A stretch of 64,000 bases of DNA from Bacteroidaceae bacterium (lineage in GTDB: Bacteria > Bacteroidota > Bacteroidia > Bacteroidales > Bacteroidaceae), in the NCBI GenBank assembly GCA_017465905.1, contig JAFTVE010000002.1, positions 14,865 through 78,864 on the forward strand. The letters run 5' to 3'. The position numbers and the translations under genes were made by a program. Below, in pieces: positions 3,133 through 51,845 of this stretch (positions are counted from its first letter, which is position 1; each line of letters starts with the position of its first letter). The notes beneath the pieces were generated by a model, which did not search any database, was not told the origin of the DNA, and saw only the letters and a program-made list of their open reading frames with translations.

Positions 3133-4002
3133 TTAGAAACTGATGCTGCACTGCAGTCCGTAGGACTGGGTGTTGCGTGGCGTGGTGTGTCGCTGTTGGT
3201 CGATGATGCTGGGTCGCACCTGTACGGTGAGGTCTTCGGAGATGTCGAAGTTGGAGAGCTCGGCATCGACATAGGCATCGATGACGGAGATGAGGTATAC
3301 GCCGATGAAGCAGAAGATGCTGAGGTCGCGCTGGCGGCGGTAGTTGTCCTTACGGTTCTTGAAGACGCGCTCCAGGTAGTCGCGGTTGGCCTCCACGTTG
3401 TAGCGGGGTGGGAGGAAGTCCTCGTAGCTGGCGGTGCCGGGGTCGTCGTCCATGAGGTCGAGGTAGCCCTGCGAGTAGTCGCTGTACATCTGGTTGTTCC
3501 AGTTGAGGGCGTAGGCGCAGCCGAGGAAGCCTCCGTAGACGATGGGTAGTTTCCAGTATTTGTGGTTGTAGATCTGTCCGCCTCCGGGGAAGACGATGCC
3601 GGCCCATGTGGCTTTGCCGGGGTCGGGGGTGAAGGTGGCTATCTTCTGCAGGCGCTGCTGGCGACGGGCACTGGGGGCCTTGGGGGCTTTTGTGGTGTCG
3701 GGGGTCGCTGTGCCGGGGGAGGGCTCGGGTGTGTCTGATGGCTTGAGTATGCCCAGCTCGGCCTTTGCGGCGCGGTGGAGCGAGTCGCCCAGGGCGATGG
3801 CGCGTGTCTCGCGCGGTGTGGGGGTGGTGAGGGTGTCGCCCAGGGTGAGACGGCTGTCGCGCAGGGGCTTGAGGGGTTGGCGGTCGCCTGCTCCGAGGGT
3901 GTCGGGCACGAGGGTGTGGGCTTGTGCTGCCAGTGTTGTGGGTAGGCATAGCATCACAAGGAGTAGGAGGGTATGTAGGGCTCTGCTGCTGTGGGGTGTC
4001 AT
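3133..4002 (-). CDS. DUF5683 domain-containing protein
   Basis: Signal peptide followed by GGGQIYNHKYWKLPIVYGGFLGCAYALNWN and C-terminal VIDAYVDAELSNFDIS. Its start overlaps the parB stop (ATGA), the usual Bacteroidales arrangement. Confidence 0.7.
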   Translation of the reverse strand: MTPHSSRALHTLLLLVMLCLPTTLAAQAHTLVPDTLGAGDRQPLKPLRDSRLTLGDTLTTPTPRETRAIALGDSLHRAAKAELGILKPSDTPEPSPGTATPDTTKAPKAPSARRQQRLQKIATFTPDPGKATWAGIVFPGGGQIYNHKYWKLPIVYGGFLGCAYALNWNNQMYSDYSQGYLDLMDDDPGTASYEDFLPPRYNVEANRDYLERVFKNRKDNYRRQRDLSIFCFIGVYLISVIDAYVDAELSNFDISEDLTVQVRPSIIDQQRHTTPRNTQSYGLQCSISF

Positions 4003-4874
4003 TTTTCCTTGAGTTTGTCAAGCAATCCGATGATGCGCTCGAGCTCGCGCTCGTTGTCGAAGGCGATGGCTATCTTGCCCTTGCCTCTGTTGCTGCAGGT
4101 GAGGATGACCTCGGTCTGGAAGTAGTTGGAGAGGTGCTTCTTGAGCATCTCGTAGTCGTTGGCGGGCTTGGGGGGTGTGGCGGCTTGCTTGGCTGCCTTT
4201 GCCTTGCTCTTCTTGATGAGTTCCTCGACCTTGCGTACGGAGTAGCCGAAGGTCTGTATCTCCTCGAAGAGGCGTATCTGCTCTATGGGGTTGTCGAGGG
4301 CGAGGAGTGCGCGGGCGTGGCCCATGTCGAGCTCGCGGTTCTTGAGGGCTACCTGTATCTGTGCGGGGAGCTTGAGCAGGCGCAGGTAGTTGGCGATGGT
4401 GGTGCGTTTCTTGCCTACGCGCTCGCTGAGCTTCTCCTGGGTGAGGCTGTACTCCTCGAGCAGGTGCTGGTAGGCGAGGGCTATCTCCATGGAGTTGAGG
4501 TCCTCGCGCTGTATGTTCTCGATGAGGGCCATCTCCATGACGTTCTCGTCGTCGGCAGTGCGTATGTAGGCGGGCACGGTGGTGAGCCCGGCGAGCTGCG
4601 ATGCACGGAAACGGCGCTCGCCGGCGATGATCTGGTAGGTGCCGTCGTCCATCTTGCGCAGGGTGATGGGCTGTATGATGCCTATCTCCTTGATGGAGTC
4701 GGCGAGCTCCTGCAGTGCCTCGGGGTCGAACTCGCGGCGCGGCTGGTTGGGGTTGGCCTTGATGTGGCTGATGGCTATCTCGCTGATGGAGGATGAGCCT
4801 TCGGTCTTCACCGTGTCGGTGGCGATGAGGGCGTCGAGGCCACGGCCTAAGGAGGGGTATTTCTTGGTTGCCAT
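3999..4874 (-). CDS. parB: chromosome partitioning protein ParB
   Basis: LGRGLDALI, IQPITLRK and GERRFRAS motifs. Start set at MATKKYPSLGRGL; the 30-aa upstream extension in the track is read from the repeat element. Confidence 0.9.
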   Translation of the reverse strand: MATKKYPSLGRGLDALIATDTVKTEGSSSISEIAISHIKANPNQPRREFDPEALQELADSIKEIGIIQPITLRKMDDGTYQIIAGERRFRASQLAGLTTVPAYIRTADDENVMEMALIENIQREDLNSMEIALAYQHLLEEYSLTQEKLSERVGKKRTTIANYLRLLKLPAQIQVALKNRELDMGHARALLALDNPIEQIRLFEEIQTFGYSVRKVEELIKKSKAKAAKQAATPPKPANDYEMLKKHLSNYFQTEVILTCSNRGKGKIAIAFDNERELERIIGLLDKLKEK

Positions 4875-4884
4875 ATCTTTTTTT

Positions 4885-5047
4885 AGTTGAAAGTTGAAAG
4901 ATGAAAGTTGAAAGTAGGCTTCGCGATGTGTTCCCTGCTGGATGACAAAACTTTTATCTTTCACTTTTCAGCGTTTCATTTTTTTAAAGTTATTTTTCTG
5001 AGTTGTAAGTAGGAAAACTTTCATCTTTCATCTTTCCACTTTTTTTA
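4885..5047. repeat. GAAAG-word hairpin element, copy 1 (between parB and the four-helix-bundle gene)
   Basis: AGTTGAAAGTTGAAAGATGAAAGTTGAAAGT ... AAAACTTTCATCTTTCATCTTTCCACT. The terminal arms are imperfect reverse complements. Roughly 90 percent identical, by eye, to copy 2. Confidence 0.9.
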
Positions 5048-5402
5048 TGTTATTATTCTGTTTGCTGGTTTTTATACTTGCAGTAAGTAGTGCTATAAGT
5101 TCTTTTAAATCACTGTACATAGAGCTGAAGTGCTGTTCATCTATAATTCCACTTTCGTGTAGAAGCTCTAACCAATAGGCAGTTTCATCTGCTTCTTTTA
5201 GGGCGATGGATAGTTTGTTGATAAAGTCAGCGCTACTTTGGGCATTGTTGCTTTCTCGTGCATTGGCACCTATGCTGGTCCCGCTACGCAGAATTTGTTT
5301 GGATATAACGCACTCATTCTTCTCTTTTTGGAGATAAGAATAGAAACGTATTATCCTTATTGCAAATTGTTTGCTTTTTTGTAACAATGGTCCGTAACTC
5401 AT
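5028..5402 (-). CDS. four-helix-bundle protein (23S rRNA intervening-sequence protein / Avd-like family)
   Basis: 124 aa. Family-typical SKQILRSGTSIGANARE...ALKEADETAYWLELL. Looks markedly AT-richer than its neighbours. The stop codon lies inside the flanking repeat. Confidence 0.85.
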   Translation of the reverse strand: MSYGPLLQKSKQFAIRIIRFYSYLQKEKNECVISKQILRSGTSIGANARESNNAQSSADFINKLSIALKEADETAYWLELLHESGIIDEQHFSSMYSDLKELIALLTASIKTSKQNNNIKKVER

Positions 5403-5411
5403 AGCTCTCTT

Positions 5412-5582
5412 AGTTGAAAGTTGAAAGATGAAAGTTGAAAGTAGGCTTTGCGATGTGTTTCCTGCCGGATGGCAATAATCTTTCTTCTTTCACTTTTCAG
5501 CGTTTCATTTTTTTAAAGTTATTTTTCTGAGTTGGAAGTAGGAAAACTTTCATCTTTCATCTTTCCACTTTCCACTTTTTTT
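5412..5582. repeat. GAAAG-word hairpin element, copy 2 (between the four-helix-bundle gene and parA; overlaps the parA 3' end)
   Basis: Direct repeat of 4885-5047, offset by 527 bp. Contains the parA stop codon and its last 8 codons. Confidence 0.9.
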
Positions 5583-6332
5583 AATGATTTCCTGTGCCAA
5601 AGTCAAGTAGTTCTGTGCTCCCTTCGACTCGGCATCGTAGAGGATGGCGGGGATGCCGTGGCTGGGGGCTTCGCTGAGGCGTACGTTGCGCTGGATGACG
5701 GTGTCGAACACCAGCTCCTGGAAGTGGCGGCGCACCTCGTCGAGAACTTGGTTGCTCAGGCGCAGGCGTGAATCGTACATCGTGAGCAGGAAGCCCTCGA
5801 TGTTGAGGCCGGGGTTGAGCTTCGACTTGATGATCTTGATGGTGTTGAGCAGCTTGCTGATGCCCTCCAGAGCGAAGTATTCGCACTGTACGGGGATGAT
5901 GACCGAGTGGGCTGCCGTGAGGGCGTTGACCGTGATGAGGCCCAGCGAGGGCGAGCAGTCGATGAGGATGTAGTCGTACTCGTTGACGAAGGGCTCGAGC
6001 ATGCGCTTGAGCACGGTCTCGCGGTGCTCGAGGTTGAGCATCTCGATTTCGGCCCCCACGAGGTCGATGTGTGAGGCTATCACTTCAAGGCCTTCGATAT
6101 CGGTCGTGTATATGGCTTCGCGAGGGTCGCGGCCGTCGATGAGGCATTCGTAGATGGAGCAGTCCACATTGTGGATGTCCACGCCGAGGCCCGATGAGGC
6201 GTTGGCCTGAGGGTCGGCATCGATGAGCAGTACTTTCTTCTCCAGCGTGGCCAGCGAGGCGGCGAGGTTGATGGCGGTAGTGGTCTTGCCCACGCCTCCC
6301 TTCTGGTTGGCCAATGCAATAATCTTTCCCAT
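5550..6332 (-). CDS. parA: chromosome partitioning ATPase ParA/Soj
   Basis: MGKIIALANQKGGVGKTTTAINLAASLA has the deviant Walker A motif, and ParA similarity runs full length. The last 8 codons (SGKWKDER) and the stop are encoded by the repeat element. Confidence 0.93.
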   Translation of the reverse strand: MGKIIALANQKGGVGKTTTAINLAASLATLEKKVLLIDADPQANASSGLGVDIHNVDCSIYECLIDGRDPREAIYTTDIEGLEVIASHIDLVGAEIEMLNLEHRETVLKRMLEPFVNEYDYILIDCSPSLGLITVNALTAAHSVIIPVQCEYFALEGISKLLNTIKIIKSKLNPGLNIEGFLLTMYDSRLRLSNQVLDEVRRHFQELVFDTVIQRNVRLSEAPSHGIPAILYDAESKGAQNYLTLAQEIIKKSGKWKDER

Positions 6333-6610
6333 TTTCTAATACTTGCTATTGTTTTCGACCGCGAAATAAACAAATATCTGTGTAACTTTGCTAAAAAACG
6401 TCCTAAACTTTCTAAAAATGTGGATAACTCCCCGTTTTTGTTAATAACTCGGGGTGGCTGTGGTTTTTTGTGCAACTGAGTTGCAAAGTTGGGCCGCGAG
6501 GGGCCAAGGTGTTGGTAATCTCGCAAAGTTGCTGTAAATTCGCGGTGTCAAAAGATGATGATGGTGATGCTGACGTTGTCGGCTGACCTTATTAAAAAAA
6601 GAAGTGTATT

Positions 6611-7909
6611 ATGCAAGAGATTATCAACCTCATCAATGAGATGTCGCCCTACCTGCTGCTGGGCTTCGGCATCGCTGGACTGATGCATACGTTTGTGCCT
6701 AACCGCCTGTATAGCCGCTACCTCTCGGGACGCAACTTCCGCTCGGTGCTCTACGCAGCTGCGCTGGGTGTGCCCCTGCCGCTGTGCTCGTGCGGTGTGT
6801 TGCCCACGGCCATGTCGCTCCGTCGGGAGGGGGCCTCGAAGGGTGCCACGACATCGTTTCTCATCGCTACGCCGCAGACGGGTGTAGACTCCATCATGGC
6901 TACCTACTCGCTCATGGGCTTGCCCTTTGCCGTCATACGCCCCGTGGCAGCGCTGGTGACGGCTCTGCTGGGCGGCACGCTGGTGAATGCCTTCGACCGT
7001 GGAGGCGAGCAGGAAGCTCATGCCCCGGCGCAGGAGAGCGAGAGGCACCTCACGCTGAAGGAGAAGGTGGTGGGGGCGCTGCGCTATGGCTATGTCGACA
7101 TGATGCAGGACATCGGCAAGTGGCTCATCATAGGTCTGCTCGTGGCTGGACTCATCACCGTGGCCGTGCCCGACGGCTTCTTTGCGGCCTTTGCCCATCG
7201 CCCCCTGCTGGGCATGCTGCTGGTGCTGGCGTGTGCGGTACCCATGTATCTGTGTGCCACAGGCTCTATCCCCATCGCTGTGGCGCTGATGCTCAAGGGC
7301 ATGACTCCCGGTGCCGCTCTGGTGCTGCTCATGGCGGGGCCGGCGGTGAATGTGGCCTCCATACTCGTCATACGCAAGGTGCTGGGTGGGCGCACCCTGT
7401 GGCTCTATCTCGCTGCCATTGTGGGTGGAGCTATCGCCTTTGCCCTGGGCGTGGACTACCTGCTGCCGCGCGAGTGGTTCACCGAGAGCCTGACAGCTAT
7501 CACGGCATCGTGCCATACGCATACCCCGTGGTTCAATATACTGTGCACAGCCGTCCTTCTGGTCCTGCTCGCTGGTGCACTGGTGCGCAGGTTTGTACGC
7601 AAGACTGCACACGAGGAGTGTGAATGTGGCGGATCGTGCCACGCGGAGGCATGTGAATGTGGCGGCGCGTGCCACGAGGAGGACCCTGTGGCGCAGGAGG
7701 TGAAGAGCCAGGAGAGGGTCTACATCGTCACCGGCATGCACTGCAACCATTGCCGCAACAGTGTGATGCGCGCCGTGGGCAGCCTACCCGGTGTGGAGGC
7801 TGTGGAGGTGGATCTCCAGAGCGGCAGGATGACGGTAAGCGGTACTGCCGAGCCGGGCGAGGTGGTGCAGGCTATCGATGCCTTGGGATTCGGAGGCGAG
7901 CTTGTGTAG
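6611..7909 (+). CDS. SO_0444-type Cu/Zn efflux permease with Cys/His-rich linker and C-terminal HMA domain
   Basis: Multi-TM permease (DUF318/ArsP-like). Contains CECGGSCHAEACECGGACHEE and then an HMA fold, YIVTGMHCNHCRNSVMRAV. Confidence 0.8.
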   Translation: MQEIINLINEMSPYLLLGFGIAGLMHTFVPNRLYSRYLSGRNFRSVLYAAALGVPLPLCSCGVLPTAMSLRREGASKGATTSFLIATPQTGVDSIMATYSLMGLPFAVIRPVAALVTALLGGTLVNAFDRGGEQEAHAPAQESERHLTLKEKVVGALRYGYVDMMQDIGKWLIIGLLVAGLITVAVPDGFFAAFAHRPLLGMLLVLACAVPMYLCATGSIPIAVALMLKGMTPGAALVLLMAGPAVNVASILVIRKVLGGRTLWLYLAAIVGGAIAFALGVDYLLPREWFTESLTAITASCHTHTPWFNILCTAVLLVLLAGALVRRFVRKTAHEECECGGSCHAEACECGGACHEEDPVAQEVKSQERVYIVTGMHCNHCRNSVMRAVGSLPGVEAVEVDLQSGRMTVSGTAEPGEVVQAIDALGFGGELV

Positions 7910-14394: not shown

Positions 14395-15360
14395 TGTGTT
14401 TGAAATGTTTTAGTTTTGCCTATAAGTTCTCCCGATTCGGCGATATGTATTATTTAAAACAAAAAAGCGTGAGAACCTGTACCTGTTGCTCGTCTCACGT
14501 TCTGAGGCCTTCGCATTGCCCGATTAGTCGAAACGAGCAACGCAGACCTCACGCCGATATGAATATATAACCACACTATACCCACCACGGTTGCGGTAAG
14601 GTATAATAAAGGAATATAAAAAACATATCCCGTGACATCTACTGTTGCTTTGTCTTTGACTAATCGTTAGAAGTTGCGAAGTTCCAGAACGTCAAAACCA
14701 AAGCGTCAAGTAAACGCCTTTCCACTATGTCGTCCCCGCCCAGCCACCCTAATCTCCAATAAAGAATCAAGGCATCGGCGCGAAGATGGAGCAAAGGTAA
14801 TAATAAATTGATAATTGACAAATGACAATTAACAATTATTTTCTTGCATCTTAAAAGAAACGCAATGAAGATATTTACACCCAACCCAGAGGGCAAGCAA
14901 CATCCACCGCAACAATCTCCAAGGTTTTCGAGGAATAGGCGTAGGTGTACCTTGAAGGCCTTGGGGATTTGCTCTCCGAATAACCTTAAGGAATCACAAG
15001 AATCATTTTGACATACGTCATAGCATGCTATCATCGCAGACTGCCTGATGGCAACCATGAAACGAAGTTCTCCATTATGAACCGTATCCAATGTTTGCCC
15101 CCGGCAAAACAGCTTGTACCCCTTGGCAGAAAGGTTTGTCAAAGGAGGTTTCTGCCAAGAGTATACAAACTGAATATGTGTATGTTATATATATTAAGGA
15201 ATCGCGCTTGCGCCTCTTGAGACCTGCATTATAGTAATTTTTCGTTTGGGGCCTGGCAGAGTTGAATTGACAATTGAAAATAGACAATTGAGAATTCCTA
15301 GTAGGCACTCACGTCAGCTTTGTCCATCAACCATCAACCACCATCCATCATCCATCAACT

Positions 15361-15425
15361 CTGCAGCGTAGCGAGAGCAATGATAGGACTACTTAGTCAT
15401 TGCCAAGCAAGCAAAGAGTCTTGAT
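15361..15425 (+). repeat. 65-nt bipartite conserved motif, copy A
   Basis: CTGCAGCGTAGCGAGAG-N23-TGCCAAGCAAGCAAAGAGTCTTGAT. Preceded by a CCATCAAC-type word array at 15324-15359. Confidence 0.8.
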
Positions 15426-15441
15426 GCGGAGCATCATAACC

Positions 15442-16083
15442 CTAAAACCTCCCCGGCGCCGGGGCATAGAAGCGGCTGTTCTTGCGGCCGAGGGCGCGTA
15501 GGTAGCCTTCGTCGACCAGCTCGTTGAGGTACTTGAGGGCAAGGTGCTTGGAGCATTCGCACAGTTGCTCCATCTGTGAGCGGTAGATGTAGGGGTGGTC
15601 GGCAAAGAAGGTAGCCAGGCGATGCTCCACGATGGTGCGGGTGAGCAGGGTGCGCACGGCATGGCCTCCGCTCACAATCTCGGCGCCGCGCAGCTCCTCC
15701 TTCAGCTCCTTGCAGGGGCGGAAGCTGATGCCCTTGACGATGACGTCGCGCTGGGTGACGCGGTCGTTGAAGTACTTGGGCTCCTTGAGGCCCAGTTTGA
15801 GGCCGAACGAACCAATCTCGTCGATCTGCACGGTGCGTCCATCGAGGAGTGCGCGGCTCAGCTCGTGCCCCAGGGCTGTAAGCACGGCCACCACGTCTAC
15901 CTTGTTGACGCTGGTGGCGAAGCCTATGCGCTCGGCCATCTCCTTGGTGGTCACTGGGGTGGAGGCTACTACGCTCACACCCATCAGGGGGTTCTTCTCG
16001 GTGGCTTCGCCCTGGAGGTCGTACCTCGGGTTCAGCTGGTAGGCAATCGTGCCACTCTTCTTTGTCGCTTTGGTCTTTCTCAT
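15442..16083 (-). CDS. HU-family (Bacteroidales HU_2-type) DNA-binding protein with C-terminal extension
   Basis: TKEMAERIG...VDVVAVLTALGHELSRALLDGRTVQIDEIGSFGLKL matches the HU-like fold. ATG at comp(16081-16083) is preferred over the upstream GTG. Confidence 0.65.
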   Translation of the reverse strand: MRKTKATKKSGTIAYQLNPRYDLQGEATEKNPLMGVSVVASTPVTTKEMAERIGFATSVNKVDVVAVLTALGHELSRALLDGRTVQIDEIGSFGLKLGLKEPKYFNDRVTQRDVIVKGISFRPCKELKEELRGAEIVSGGHAVRTLLTRTIVEHRLATFFADHPYIYRSQMEQLCECSKHLALKYLNELVDEGYLRALGRKNSRFYAPAPGRF

Positions 16084-22510: not shown

Positions 22511-22535
22511 AGTGACGTCAATCTATAATCACGTG

Positions 22536-22543
22536 CAAAATTA
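22536..22543 (-). promoter_or_regulatory. -7 box TAatTTTG for the lptF/G-type gene
   Basis: Plus strand CAAAATTA, 26 nt upstream of the GTG at 22510. It is embedded in the module AAAATTAGTGCAAGGCGAGCGAAAAA, which is shared with the gmd upstream region. Confidence 0.5.
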
Positions 22544-22721
22544 GTGCAAGGCGAGCGAAAAAACAAGTTTGCTTGTGTTTTTCCGAGCCGAAGCTTAATT
22601 TCTGCTTGCTTTGGTAAATTAATTTTAGTTTAGGTGAGCGAAGAAACTGGTTTCCCGAACGAGTCGAGTGCGCAAAAAAACATTCAGGCTTGCTGCAAAT
22701 ATGATGTCGTCATGTCGCTCG

Positions 22722-48652: not shown

Positions 48653-48692
48653 AGTTTATATGTCGTTTATATACAATTATCCAAATTGAGCG

Positions 48693-48700
48693 CAAAGATA
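48693..48700 (-). promoter_or_regulatory. -7 box TAtcTTTG for valS
   Basis: Plus strand CAAAGATA, 41 nt upstream of the ATG at 48652. Confidence 0.5.
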
Positions 48701-48820
48701 CGAATAAACGAGCGAAAAATATCAAGCTTGCTTGAATATTTCTCTCTGCGAGTGATAGTATCTTCACGGCATAGCCGTAAAATTAGTGCAAACCGAGAGA
48801 AAAAGCATTTAAGCTGAGCC

Positions 48821-49762: not shown

Positions 49763-49790
49763 TGCTTAATTGTGAATTATGATACTTTGT

Positions 49791-49855
49791 ATCAAGATTC
49801 CTTGCTTGCTTGGCAGAGTAATAATAAGTTTTACTCTACTCTCGCTACGCTGCGG
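49791..49855 (-). repeat. 65-nt bipartite conserved motif, copy B (gmd-fcl spacer)
   Basis: Minus strand reads CCGCAGCGTAGCGAGAG-N23-TGCCAAGCAAGCAAGGAATCTTGAT. Preceded on that strand by an (AATTGTG/AATTGTC)n-type array at 49856-49920. Confidence 0.8.
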
Positions 49856-49920
49856 AATTGTGAATTGTGAATTGTCAATTGTGAATTGTGAATTGTGAAT
49901 TGTCAATTGTCAATTGTCAA
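49856..49920. repeat. tandem heptamer array (AATTGTG/AATTGTC), about 9 units
   Basis: GAATTGTGAATTGTGAATTGTCAATTGTGAATTGTGAATTGTGAATTGTCAATTGTCAATTGTCAATT, immediately after the gmd stop codon. Confidence 0.9.
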
Positions 49921-51079: not shown

Positions 51080-51370
51080 GTGCAAGCCGAGAGAAAATGC
51101 AAGCTTGCTTAATATTATTTTCTTCCTTGTCACTCGGCAGAGATTGTGTAAGCCCATCTCTGCTCTCGTTCCTGCGTCAGTTGCAATTTTCCGAGGCGCA
51201 GCCTAATTTCTGGCCTGCATAGCAGGACTAAAGATAGTGCAAGCCGAGAGAAAATGCAAGCTTGCTTAATTTTATTTTCTTCCTTGTCACTCGGCATAGA
51301 GATTAGGCAAGCCCATCTCTGCTCTCGTTCCTGCATTAGTTGCAATTTTCCGAGGCGCCGCCTAATTTCT
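51079..51370. repeat. two direct repeats of about 134 bp (period 157 bp), each carrying a promoter-like module
   Basis: 51079-51211 and 51236-51370 align with few mismatches (AGTGCAAGCCGAGAGAAAATGCAAGCTTGCTTAAT...CCGAGGCGC.GCCTAATTTCT). Confidence 0.85.
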
Positions 51371-51431: not shown

Positions 51432-51845
51432 CTATATGGCGAAAGTTCATAAATCGGTTGGCTTTGGCAACGCGGAGAGAACAGAGCCAAATTCATTTGA
51501 ACTCTGCTCACGAGCAAGCAAGCACAACAAATTCAGTACTTCCCCGTCAGTACTCCAGTACTGAGCCGTAAGTACTCGAGTACTTGGTCATAAGTACTAT
51601 AGTACTTGCATGAAAGTACTGATAGTTACGCCTTTTTTCTGTCTTAAGATTGTCGTTTCAGTGTGAGTCGTGCTAAAGAAGTTTACAATATAGGGCTTAA
51701 TATACTGAAAAGGTTGACAATTATTCTTTCATTCCTATTGGCTATAGTATTAAAACAAACTCTTAATATCCGTCAAGAAGTTAACGTTATCGTTGCAGCG
51801 TTCCGCACTGCCAAAGCCAACCGATTTATGAACTTTTGCCAATAG
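51432..51845. mobile_element. 414-bp segment bounded by 37-38 bp inverted repeats (MITE-like, or invertible/ori-like segment; nature unknown)
   Basis: Left CTATATGGCGAAAGTTCATAAATCGGTTGGCTTTGGCA (51432-51469). The reverse complement of 51809-51845 is CTATTGGCAAAAGTTCATAAATCGGTTGGCTTTGGCA, with a 28-nt perfect core. Confidence 0.4.
51535..51620. repeat. eight AGTACT hexamers in a strict 14/8/14/8/14/8/14-bp start-to-start pattern (22-bp period)
   Basis: AGTACT starts at 51535, 51549, 51557, 51571, 51579, 51593, 51601 and 51615. The spacers (N8 and N2) are not conserved. Confidence 0.9.

Follow-up and report, generated by a model that had tools for sequence, protein, structure and literature searches.

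The 65-nt bipartite motif at positions 15,361-15,425 of the window (the whole 64,000-nt stretch of DNA analyzed here, positions 14,865-78,864 on the forward strand of contig JAFTVE010000002.1 in the Bacteroidaceae bacterium assembly GCA_017465905.1) is, with a probability that we put at roughly 70%, the core of a family of ~95-nt non-autonomous, structure-dependent mobile DNA repeats of uncultured ruminant-gut Bacteroidaceae. The family belongs to a wider Bacteroidales superfamily and was previously uncatalogued, although its kind, that of small mobile repeats such as REP/BIME, PATE, and MITE, is familiar. Empty and filled orthologous sites, a copy in frame inside a gene, tandem copies, and deletion remnants together mark it as a dispersed mobile DNA repeat. 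Its movement is read from the comparison of species-level genomes, not watched as it happens, and every genome compared is a MAG, so copy counts and absences are approximate throughout. The window's own assembly, hereafter G000, comprises 2.84 Mb in 54 contigs and is 79.7% complete; the other genomes of its genus likewise come from uncultured Bacteroidaceae of the ruminant hindgut (water deer, cattle, and yak).

An earlier note, made from the sequence of the window, had described two copies of the motif, copy A at 15,361-15,425 on the plus strand and copy B at 49,791-49,855 on the minus strand. The letters that we re-read are identical to those it quoted; the flanks agree at 16/17 and 23/25 positions, and the 23 nt between them show no similarity from one copy to the other and pair with themselves in each. 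The 15-nt and 17-nt conserved flanks occur twice each in the 64-kb window, compared with 0.13 and 0.02 occurrences in dinucleotide shuffles. A word array does lie ahead of both copies, formed by CCATCAAC-type words at 15,324-15,359 and by nine AATTSAC heptamers at 49,856-49,920. The 65-nt limits, in contrast, were drawn too narrowly: conservation and pairing reach ~10 nt further upstream and ~30 nt downstream, and the full conserved unit of ~95 nt takes in a second hairpin, located 3' of the motif, and an outer helix to which the array contributes its last word.

Both units are matched by R1, a covariance model built on an alignment (A1) of 19 copies from G000. Unit A spans 15,353-15,447 on the plus strand (93.1 bits). 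The last word of its array gives part of the 5' strand of the outer helix P1, ACTCT (15,358-15,362); the conserved 5' junction GCAGCGTAGCGAGAG (15,363-15,377) has the GCGNAGC motif and the CGAG of a tandem G·A; the hairpin P2 (15,377-15,403) is the "divergent central hairpin" of the earlier note; and the conserved 3' junction CAAGCAAGCAA is followed by the 3' strand of P1, AGAGT at 15,415-15,419 (together 15,404-15,419). The unit continues with the mini-hairpin P3, TGATGC-GGA-GCATCA, and with TAACC, in which the AAC of the 5' junction recurs (15,422-15,436), as comparison of a sister copy (locus L198) with its empty site indicates. Unit B lies on the minus strand in the spacer between gmd and fcl (49,769-49,863, 96.4 bits). 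Its AATTSAC array (49,856-49,920, minus strand) begins at the gmd stop codon, and the last word gives the 5' strand of P1, ATTCC (49,858-49,854). The 5' junction GCAGCGTAGCGAGAG at 49,839-49,853, P2 at 49,813-49,839, and the 3' junction CAAGCAAGCAA with the 3' strand of P1, GGAAT at 49,801-49,797 (together 49,797-49,812), then precede P3, TGATAC-AAA-GTATCA, and a T followed by AATT, the second member of a direct repeat whose first AATT lies at the 5' junction (49,775-49,794), all on the minus strand.

The window also holds diverged members of the superfamily, at 22,533-22,630 (plus strand, 37.6 bits; P1 AAATT/AATTT, GCGAGCG ... CCGAGC), 48,692-48,790 (plus strand, 27.6 bits), 51,108-51,185 (minus strand, 33.8 bits; clamp pair A-T in ACGAGAG ... 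CCGAGT), and 51,262-51,344 (minus strand, 27.8 bits). A weak degenerate copy at 51,459-51,539 (plus strand, 21.2 bits) adjoins the left inverted repeat of a mosaic element upstream of gmd, which is where the TGGCAATGGC subfamily sits.

RNAalifold and separate pair counts agree on the structure of the unit. A 5-bp outer helix (P1) is followed by a 5' junction that reads GCA-GC-GYA-GC-GAG-A, by the 10- to 12-bp hairpin P2 with a loop that is usually CTTG closed by G-C, and by a 3' junction that reads C-CGAG-C-MA-GC-AA and leads into the 3' strand of P1. P3, on the 3' side, is a mini-hairpin of six pairs whose three-base loop is of the C(GNA)G type; after it come TA or AT and a short repeat of the 5'-junction sequence. 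Pairing between the junctions can give a pair of 2-bp GC clamps plus a CGAG/CGAG box, in which two G-C pairs enclose a tandem G·A/A·G and are followed by a bulged A. Both the G(CUUG)C loop and the tandem G·A of CGAG/CGAG belong to the classical repertoire of RNA motifs; in DNA, a tandem G·A is likewise stable in the context that it has here, 5'-Y-GA-R-3'. A K-turn reading of the G·A motif was rejected on inspection, since no 3-nt bulge lies beside the G·A pairs.

The pattern that the earlier note had singled out, in which the ends are conserved, the length is fixed, and the core varies yet stays paired, holds in 88 distinct copies from many genomes: 96.3% of the cells are paired, compared with 75.1% upon shuffling and 24-36% when the partners are slid, and both-sided changes occur in 24 of the 26 pairs, although the 88-copy alignment was fitted to the model and thereby favors the structure. 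One column of P1 has G-C in 33 copies, C-G in 28, U-A in 12, and A-U in 11, with a single mismatch; the clamp pair N-N' closing the CGAG box occurs in three forms, G-C, C-G, and A-T. A hairpin follows P1 in 82/85 distinct copies, and P3 takes the form C(GNA or AAA)G in 53/85 (9.4 in shuffles), with C-G as its closing pair in 58/82. Compensatory changes in P1, P2, and P3 are unexpected for a site bound as duplex DNA, and they count against the reading in which the two flanks, conserved at a fixed spacing, form a bipartite site bound by a nucleoid protein or a regulator, whose regulon the copies would mark. That reading, which the fixed spacing does suit, is highly improbable given also that the copies are found downstream of stop codons, within an ORF, and arranged in tandem rather than at promoters, and that their presence varies at orthologous loci.

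The same helices could instead have been maintained by selection on RNA. The copies would then be a functional structured RNA that is multi-copy by chance: a 3'-UTR or inter-cistronic element for processing, stabilizing, or terminating transcripts, a small RNA transcribed from a promoter of its own, or a motif that cleaves itself or binds a protein. Covariation is strong in the three helices, and selection on RNA would maintain helices and junctions alike; P2 and the junctions are strongly conserved across genera; and the minimum-energy RNA fold of each window copy is the consensus structure (z = -2.7 and -4.8), in which the CTTG loop with its G-C closing pair makes a good RNA tetraloop. The strong copies in co-directional spacers, placed by gene calls from our own codon-based ORF scoring, comprise 10 in sense and 3-4 in antisense, a mild and nonsignificant bias, and ahead of some copies of the TGGCAATGGC type stands TATTTTTG, a fit to the Bacteroidetes -7 box TAnnTTTG that could act as a promoter element. 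Other strong copies, however, lie in convergent spacers (3), in divergent spacers (2), and inside an ORF (1); the weaker subfamilies have no sense bias (4 sense and 5 antisense in co-directional spacers); the non-Watson-Crick cells of the stems comprise 29 of the G·T type and 24 A·C, with none of the wobble asymmetry that would mark a strand or an RNA; at housekeeping loci, closely related genomes gain and lose copies without any apparent need for them; Rfam contains nothing that matches; and the triloop of P3, C(GNA)G, is of a kind that stabilizes DNA rather than RNA (PMC13037366). On balance we consider a dedicated RNA unlikely, though worth keeping in view. Of the earlier proposal of a structured RNA or a bipartite protein site, the structure stands, and the evidence points to a dispersed, insertion-polymorphic DNA repeat rather than to a dedicated RNA or an operator.

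The mobile-repeat reading places the fold elsewhere. The 5' junction specific to the genus is GCGNAGC, in which N is free: GCGTAGC, GCGCAGC, or GCGAAGC is found depending on the copy, and GATTA takes this position in other genera. GCGNAGC mini-hairpins are exceptionally stable in DNA and are found at single-strand initiation sites (PMC13037366). Taken together, the P3 triloops, GCGNAGC, and the orientation and wobble results favor a fold whose importance lies in the DNA, probably in single-stranded form. The copy between gmd and fcl is probably co-transcribed and may incidentally affect the mRNA, which would be a side effect and not the reason for which the family exists. A more speculative thought is that mobile DNA carries, in the highly conserved CGAG/hairpin/CGAG core, a new RNA motif with a catalytic or protein-binding role.

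The history of insertion is spread out in the gmd-fcl spacer. This spacer measures 1-3 nt in G017, holds short TAATTGA-type sequences in several genomes, consists of a bare array of 5 heptamers in G001 and of 12 in G007, and contains array and core together solely in G000 and G023, the array of G023 being one heptamer shorter than that of G000; in three further genomes, this position is taken by unrelated insertions. Elsewhere, locus C15 is filled in G000 and G002 and empty in G023 and G001, C36 is filled in G000 and empty in G001, C47 is filled in G000 and empty in G023, C48 is filled in G000 and empty in G002, and L186 and L198 are filled in G023 and empty in G000. At L192 (G023:C17), G023 carries a copy and G000 lacks a larger, diverged stretch of ~180 nt, which is not a clean empty site. 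Genomes that are ~99% identical at the loci examined differ in repeat content, making the repeat a source of strain-level variation and of assembly breaks. Because empty and filled sites differ by the repeat alone and not by a gene plus a site, the units are hardly attC-like recombination sites that mark gene cassettes, as their imperfect palindromes, conserved ends, variable centers, and location at 3' ends of genes might suggest. Their neighbors are ordinary conserved genes (gmd, fcl, and an HU-like gene) rather than cassettes, their ends, inspected by eye, do not have the RYYYAAC and GTTRRRY core sites, and we give this reading even less credence than a duplex-DNA site.

The clean junctions read CAATT/CC...CATAATT/CAC, ACAACT/CC...TATAACT/TATT, AATGGC/GCAG...TATTGGC/AAAGG, and TCAAC/TCT...CATAAC/C, with slashes at the boundaries. 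The insert is accordingly bracketed by a 3- to 4-nt repeat, and the 5' strand of P1 consists of target bases plus 1-3 bases of the element. The direct repeats at these empty/filled pairs (AATT, AACT, TGGC, and AAC) could be a target-site duplication but are inseparable from a repeated target word or from microhomology, and the bounding direct repeat is specific to each subfamily. Across the wider set, the 6-mer of the 5' junction recurs head-to-tail just after P3 in 24/85 copies, compared with 1.4 in permutations (maximum 5). Insertion of the core into the loop of a pre-existing palindrome was considered and rejected for the genus, in which the empty sites also lack the 3' strand of P1 and P3.

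Further rearrangements bear the stamp of a DNA element. Direct tandem copies have periods of 81-88 nt (74 nt in one MAG of another family), and tandem copy number varies between genomes, G023 having two copies where G000 has one. Internally deleted remnants join the 5' junction to P3 through a shared GCGCAGC. One copy, with its flanking words, lies in frame inside a 1166-aa DUF5107/TPR ORF, and remnant forms occupy the same place of this gene in G001 and G002. At two sites, the C2 locus and L200, different elements alternate between genomes at one position.

The arrays that accompany the repeat have a life of their own. G000 holds 95 arrays of at least 3 AATT[CG]AN heptamers, of which ~7 contain the core; together with the change in heptamer number at gmd-fcl, this makes the arrays an independent, abundant, and length-variable feature. 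They often begin at a stop codon (TAATTGAC...), and the repeat usually sits inside or beside such a pre-existing array just after a stop codon. The element thus lands in word arrays or is retained in them, which explains why an array precedes both copies of the window. Words are also shared with other elements: a four-helix-bundle cassette at 4,885-5,582 uses TTGAAAG words, as does one subfamily of the repeat. The four-helix-bundle (PF05635) cassettes were examined as possible relatives and set aside, the TTGAAAG words being common to both and the core being absent. Literature searches for heptamer repeats in Bacteroides and Prevotella returned nothing relevant.

Far from being confined to the window, the motif exists in hundreds of copies, a result on which the earlier note had made its standing depend. 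A pattern search of G000 finds 15 copies and a looser scan 21; R1 returns 21 matches at 74-110 bits and a tail of weaker relatives. All 24 of the other genomes of the genus that were searched have R1 matches, 11-79 each at E ≤ 0.001, a count that includes weaker superfamily matches. In the family-level sample, R1 matches 39/141 genomes and 16/35 genera, the scores outside the genus being lower (45-57 bits), and in 15 other families of the order R1 finds no match, one weak case excepted. In genera other than that of G000, the core (A/G)GCGAGAG-CAGAGCCAAGCTTGCTTGAGCTATG-CCGAGCG hardly changes, and P1, P3, and the flanking words vary freely. This form of the core occurs in Prevotella MAGs, in MAGs labeled Proteiniphilum and Rikenellaceae, and in Xylanibacter ruminicola Ga6B6, a cultured carrier with a copy; a Phocaeicola massiliensis record has a partial core. 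The other-genus cores were found by an exact-pattern search, so that their 40-mer identity across families is partly a matter of ascertainment and carries little weight, and mis-binned contigs may contribute to the cross-family matches just as MAG binning may blur the taxonomy. Phage and plasmid collections gave one partial match each and no clear vehicle.

The earlier note's statement that the motif matches no known RNA family agrees with a comparison against Rfam 15 at gathering and permissive thresholds: no family was found for the motif in the window (gathering thresholds) or in 14 copy loci (E ≤ 5), and the matches that these sequences did return, to tRNAs, a cobalamin riboswitch, and chance similarities, all lie elsewhere. 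A literature search found no paper that describes the repeat, and searches with strings of the core sequence gave chance matches only.

We posit that the repeat spreads as DNA, probably via a single-stranded folded intermediate that would be recognized by an enzyme of the host or of an element, acting in trans; the helices would then covary because only folded copies have been propagated. The match between P1 and its target could arise (i) if an internal segment of the element (GGAAT, GGAGT, GCCAT, or GTCTT) pairs with the target word or (ii) if copying uses microhomology with the word arrays. When copy B is folded as DNA, its GGAAT does not choose the upstream word but pairs across P3 with the ATTC downstream, which suggests that this segment can pair with either junction. 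A bolder version of the first scenario, in which the 5-nt segment 5' of the terminal mini-hairpin guides insertion by pairing and the repeat is a tiny, enzyme-less, programmable single-stranded-DNA transposon served by a nuclease of the host or acting in trans, is a speculation that we think quite improbable. If it were true, each change of the guide would retarget a subfamily to another heptamer array, and P1 would "covary" automatically.

Strand preference offers little guidance to the enzyme. The strand of the element agrees with the sign of local GC skew in 12/21 strong copies and in 21/39 overall; the lack of a replication-strand bias in these copies argues against strict lagging-strand targeting in the style of IS200/IS605, and no TnpA or TnpB was found linked to the element. 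The candidate in G000 is a single gene (C47:35,678-36,694) for a 339-aa RayT-like Y1 HUH protein that passes Pfam Y1_Tnp and has as its best match the REP-associated tyrosine transposase NF047646 (43 bits against a cut-off of 80). In the family sample, this gene occurs in 16/39 element-positive and 5/102 element-negative genomes, a link overstated by non-independent relatives; it is present in 12/16 genomes with at least 5 matches and in 9/125 others, again among related MAGs that are 62-93% complete. Within the genus, it is full-length in 9/31 genomes and missing from 22/31, including the high-copy genomes G013 and G007. Six RayT-like loci in five genomes, scanned with filters off, are not flanked by copies of the repeat, and one diverged 28-bit copy lies ~270 nt downstream of the gene in G000 and G023. 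The RayT-like Y1 gene is, in sum, loosely associated with the repeat. A small single-domain GIY-YIG gene of the Ssn type was not found in the 79.7% of the genome that G000 represents, where the sole PF01541 match is a 617-aa open frame that we take to be UvrC.

Gut and rumen Bacteroidales are well studied as commensals, yet their small mobile repeats have scarcely been catalogued. The present family occupies spacers in conserved operons, gmd-fcl among them, enters coding sequence without breaking the frame, and can pass for a riboregulator. Its architecture is strong and unusual, with GNA mini-hairpins and a clamp of tandem G·A; its outer helix is drawn partly from the target; and it prefers abundant heptamer arrays. 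These three features make it a good test case for how gene-less, structure-dependent mobile DNA recognizes its substrate and its target.

Among known systems, REP/BIME and REPIN-RAYT elements (PMC3733652, PMC3337134, and PMC3116915) are likewise short non-coding hairpin repeats that run to tens or hundreds of copies, most of them beyond the ends of genes, form tandem or mosaic clusters, are sometimes intragenic, and vary in abundance between relatives. With at least 21 strong copies in G000, mostly intergenic and hairpin-forming, the present repeat is a short extragenic imperfect palindrome in many copies, as a REP is. It differs in that its unit is ~95 nt long and has three helices, whereas a classical REP is a palindrome of 20-40 nt; it lacks the invariant GTAG or CGTC tag of REPs; its copies are single or in direct tandem and do not form the inverted doublets of REPINs; and it does not flank a RAYT gene as in a REPtron.

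PATEs, which derive from IS200/IS605 (PMC6006769), resemble the present repeat in having one-strand hairpins near both ends and no terminal inverted repeats. They differ from it, as does IS608, in that the pairing of the present unit spans the whole element rather than staying within each end, and the present repeat has neither a GC-skew bias nor a linked TnpA/TnpB. Guide-directed target choice of the IS608 type was reportedly described by Barabas et al. in 2008, and GGAAT or its variants, the stretch at the foot of the 3' hairpin on the 5' side, recalls that arrangement in being complementary to the left junction and to the right-end repeat. MITEs such as BrickBuilt/MITEPgRS of Porphyromonas gingivalis (PMC4596501) are also small non-autonomous insertions in a Bacteroidales host, with tandem short repeats nearby and short direct repeats at their junctions. 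The ends of the present repeat, CCGCAGCG... and ...GTATCATA, are not complementary and so do not form the terminal inverted repeats of a MITE, and our search found no insertion sequence with the same ends.

The copy in frame within the DUF5107/TPR gene recalls Rickettsia palindromic elements (RPE) and intragenic REPs, as summarized in PMC3733652. The present family differs in being overwhelmingly intergenic, with 1 intragenic case among 21 strong copies. Elhai et al. are said to have reported in 2008 small dispersed repeats of cyanobacteria inserted in HIP1 or in heptamer repeats. These (see also PMC4390886) are very small mobile modules that land, as ours does, precisely in short repeated words or tandem heptamers; they measure 21-27 nt, whereas the present unit is ~95 nt long and strongly structured, and phylum and sequences differ. 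Closer to home, Ssn proteins are small GIY-YIG single-strand nucleases that act on the NTS/SRM hairpin repeats as single-stranded DNA (PMC11893778). The present element lacks the NTS frame GTCAT...GGAATC; G000 carries seven copies of a separate, SRM-like inverted doublet, and the 5' junction GCA-GCGNAGC-GAGAG of our repeat resembles the GA-GCGAAGC-GA center of the SRM-like repeat in the same genomes. Departing from REP/BIME, PATE, and MITE in the very features that define each of them, the repeat nevertheless works like all three.

Heptamer arrays of the type AATT[CG]AN are widespread in the genome of the window, where 95 arrays of at least three units occur in 2.84 Mb (49856-49920 is an example within the window), and they frequently start at a stop codon (TAATTGAC...). 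In the gmd-fcl spacer, which holds copy B, array length ranges from 0 to 12 heptamer units among congeners, and the G023 array is that of the window's genome minus one heptamer. Another array, of the AATTGAC type (window 15265-15297), lies ~60 nt upstream of copy A. It ends in GAGAATTCC, which members of the AATTCC subfamily usually have as their 5′ junction, but what comes next is unrelated sequence with no core; this array may represent a solo junction or a remnant.

Element sites also house other sequences. At the position that the element occupies in the gmd-fcl spacer of the window's genome, the congener G013 carries a 456-nt insert (L080:1051-1500) that is flanked by inverted arms of the CCCTCCTT-GAAAGGAGGG type. 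The insert contains a small ORF of ~125 aa, which, judging by its sequence, we take to encode a putative DUF559/Vsr-like endonuclease. Among orthologues of the contig C2 copy of the window's genome (L112, L113, L125 and L111), a single post-stop-codon site is filled, depending on the genome, by one of three hairpin elements: our element, a GAAGAGG/CCTCTTC word-arm hairpin or a CCCCTCC...GGAGGGG hairpin. Gene ends look like landing pads common to different hairpin elements. One and the same AATTGAC array bears the element in G023 (L200), and in the window's genome (C20:38716-38950) it bears another member of the superfamily, built as TGCAAACGAGCG-hairpin-CTCAGCGAGTGCAGCC.

A copy can also lie within a gene. 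On contig C12 of the window's genome, a minus-strand copy (3719-3813) and its flanking words are read in frame as part of a 1166-aa DUF5107/TPR protein (ORF 3156-6656, minus strand); the same position holds a remnant with an internal deletion in G001 and a shorter remnant in G002. In a MAG labelled Proteiniphilum, a 74-nt unit is repeated three and a half times in direct tandem (L151:640-890, minus strand). These units lack P3 and have an 8-bp P1 (ACTATTTC/GAAATAGT), and the tandem shows that the unit can be amplified locally as a minisatellite.

Direct copies of ATAAACTGTACTTATTTTT lie on both sides of a single RayT-like Y1 gene (L069:1315-2334, equivalent to C47:35678-36694 in the window's genome). 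In G019, G021 and G024, its N- and C-terminal matches lie ~400 nt apart, a spacing that suggests interruption of the gene by an insertion.

A second repeat family, distinct from the element, has the sequence GTCATCCTGAGCG(A/T)AGCGAAGGATCTC ... GAGATTCTTCGCTTTGCTCAGAATGAC and is laid out as an inverted doublet. One doublet lies in the gmd-fcl spacer of G002 (L077:1403-1501), and the window's genome has doublets at seven loci, on contigs C2, C4, C9, C26, C36, C48 and C52. The doublet arms are similar to the NTS/SRM hairpins of Neisseria, which Ssn nucleases cut, yet the window's genome contains no small GIY-YIG gene.
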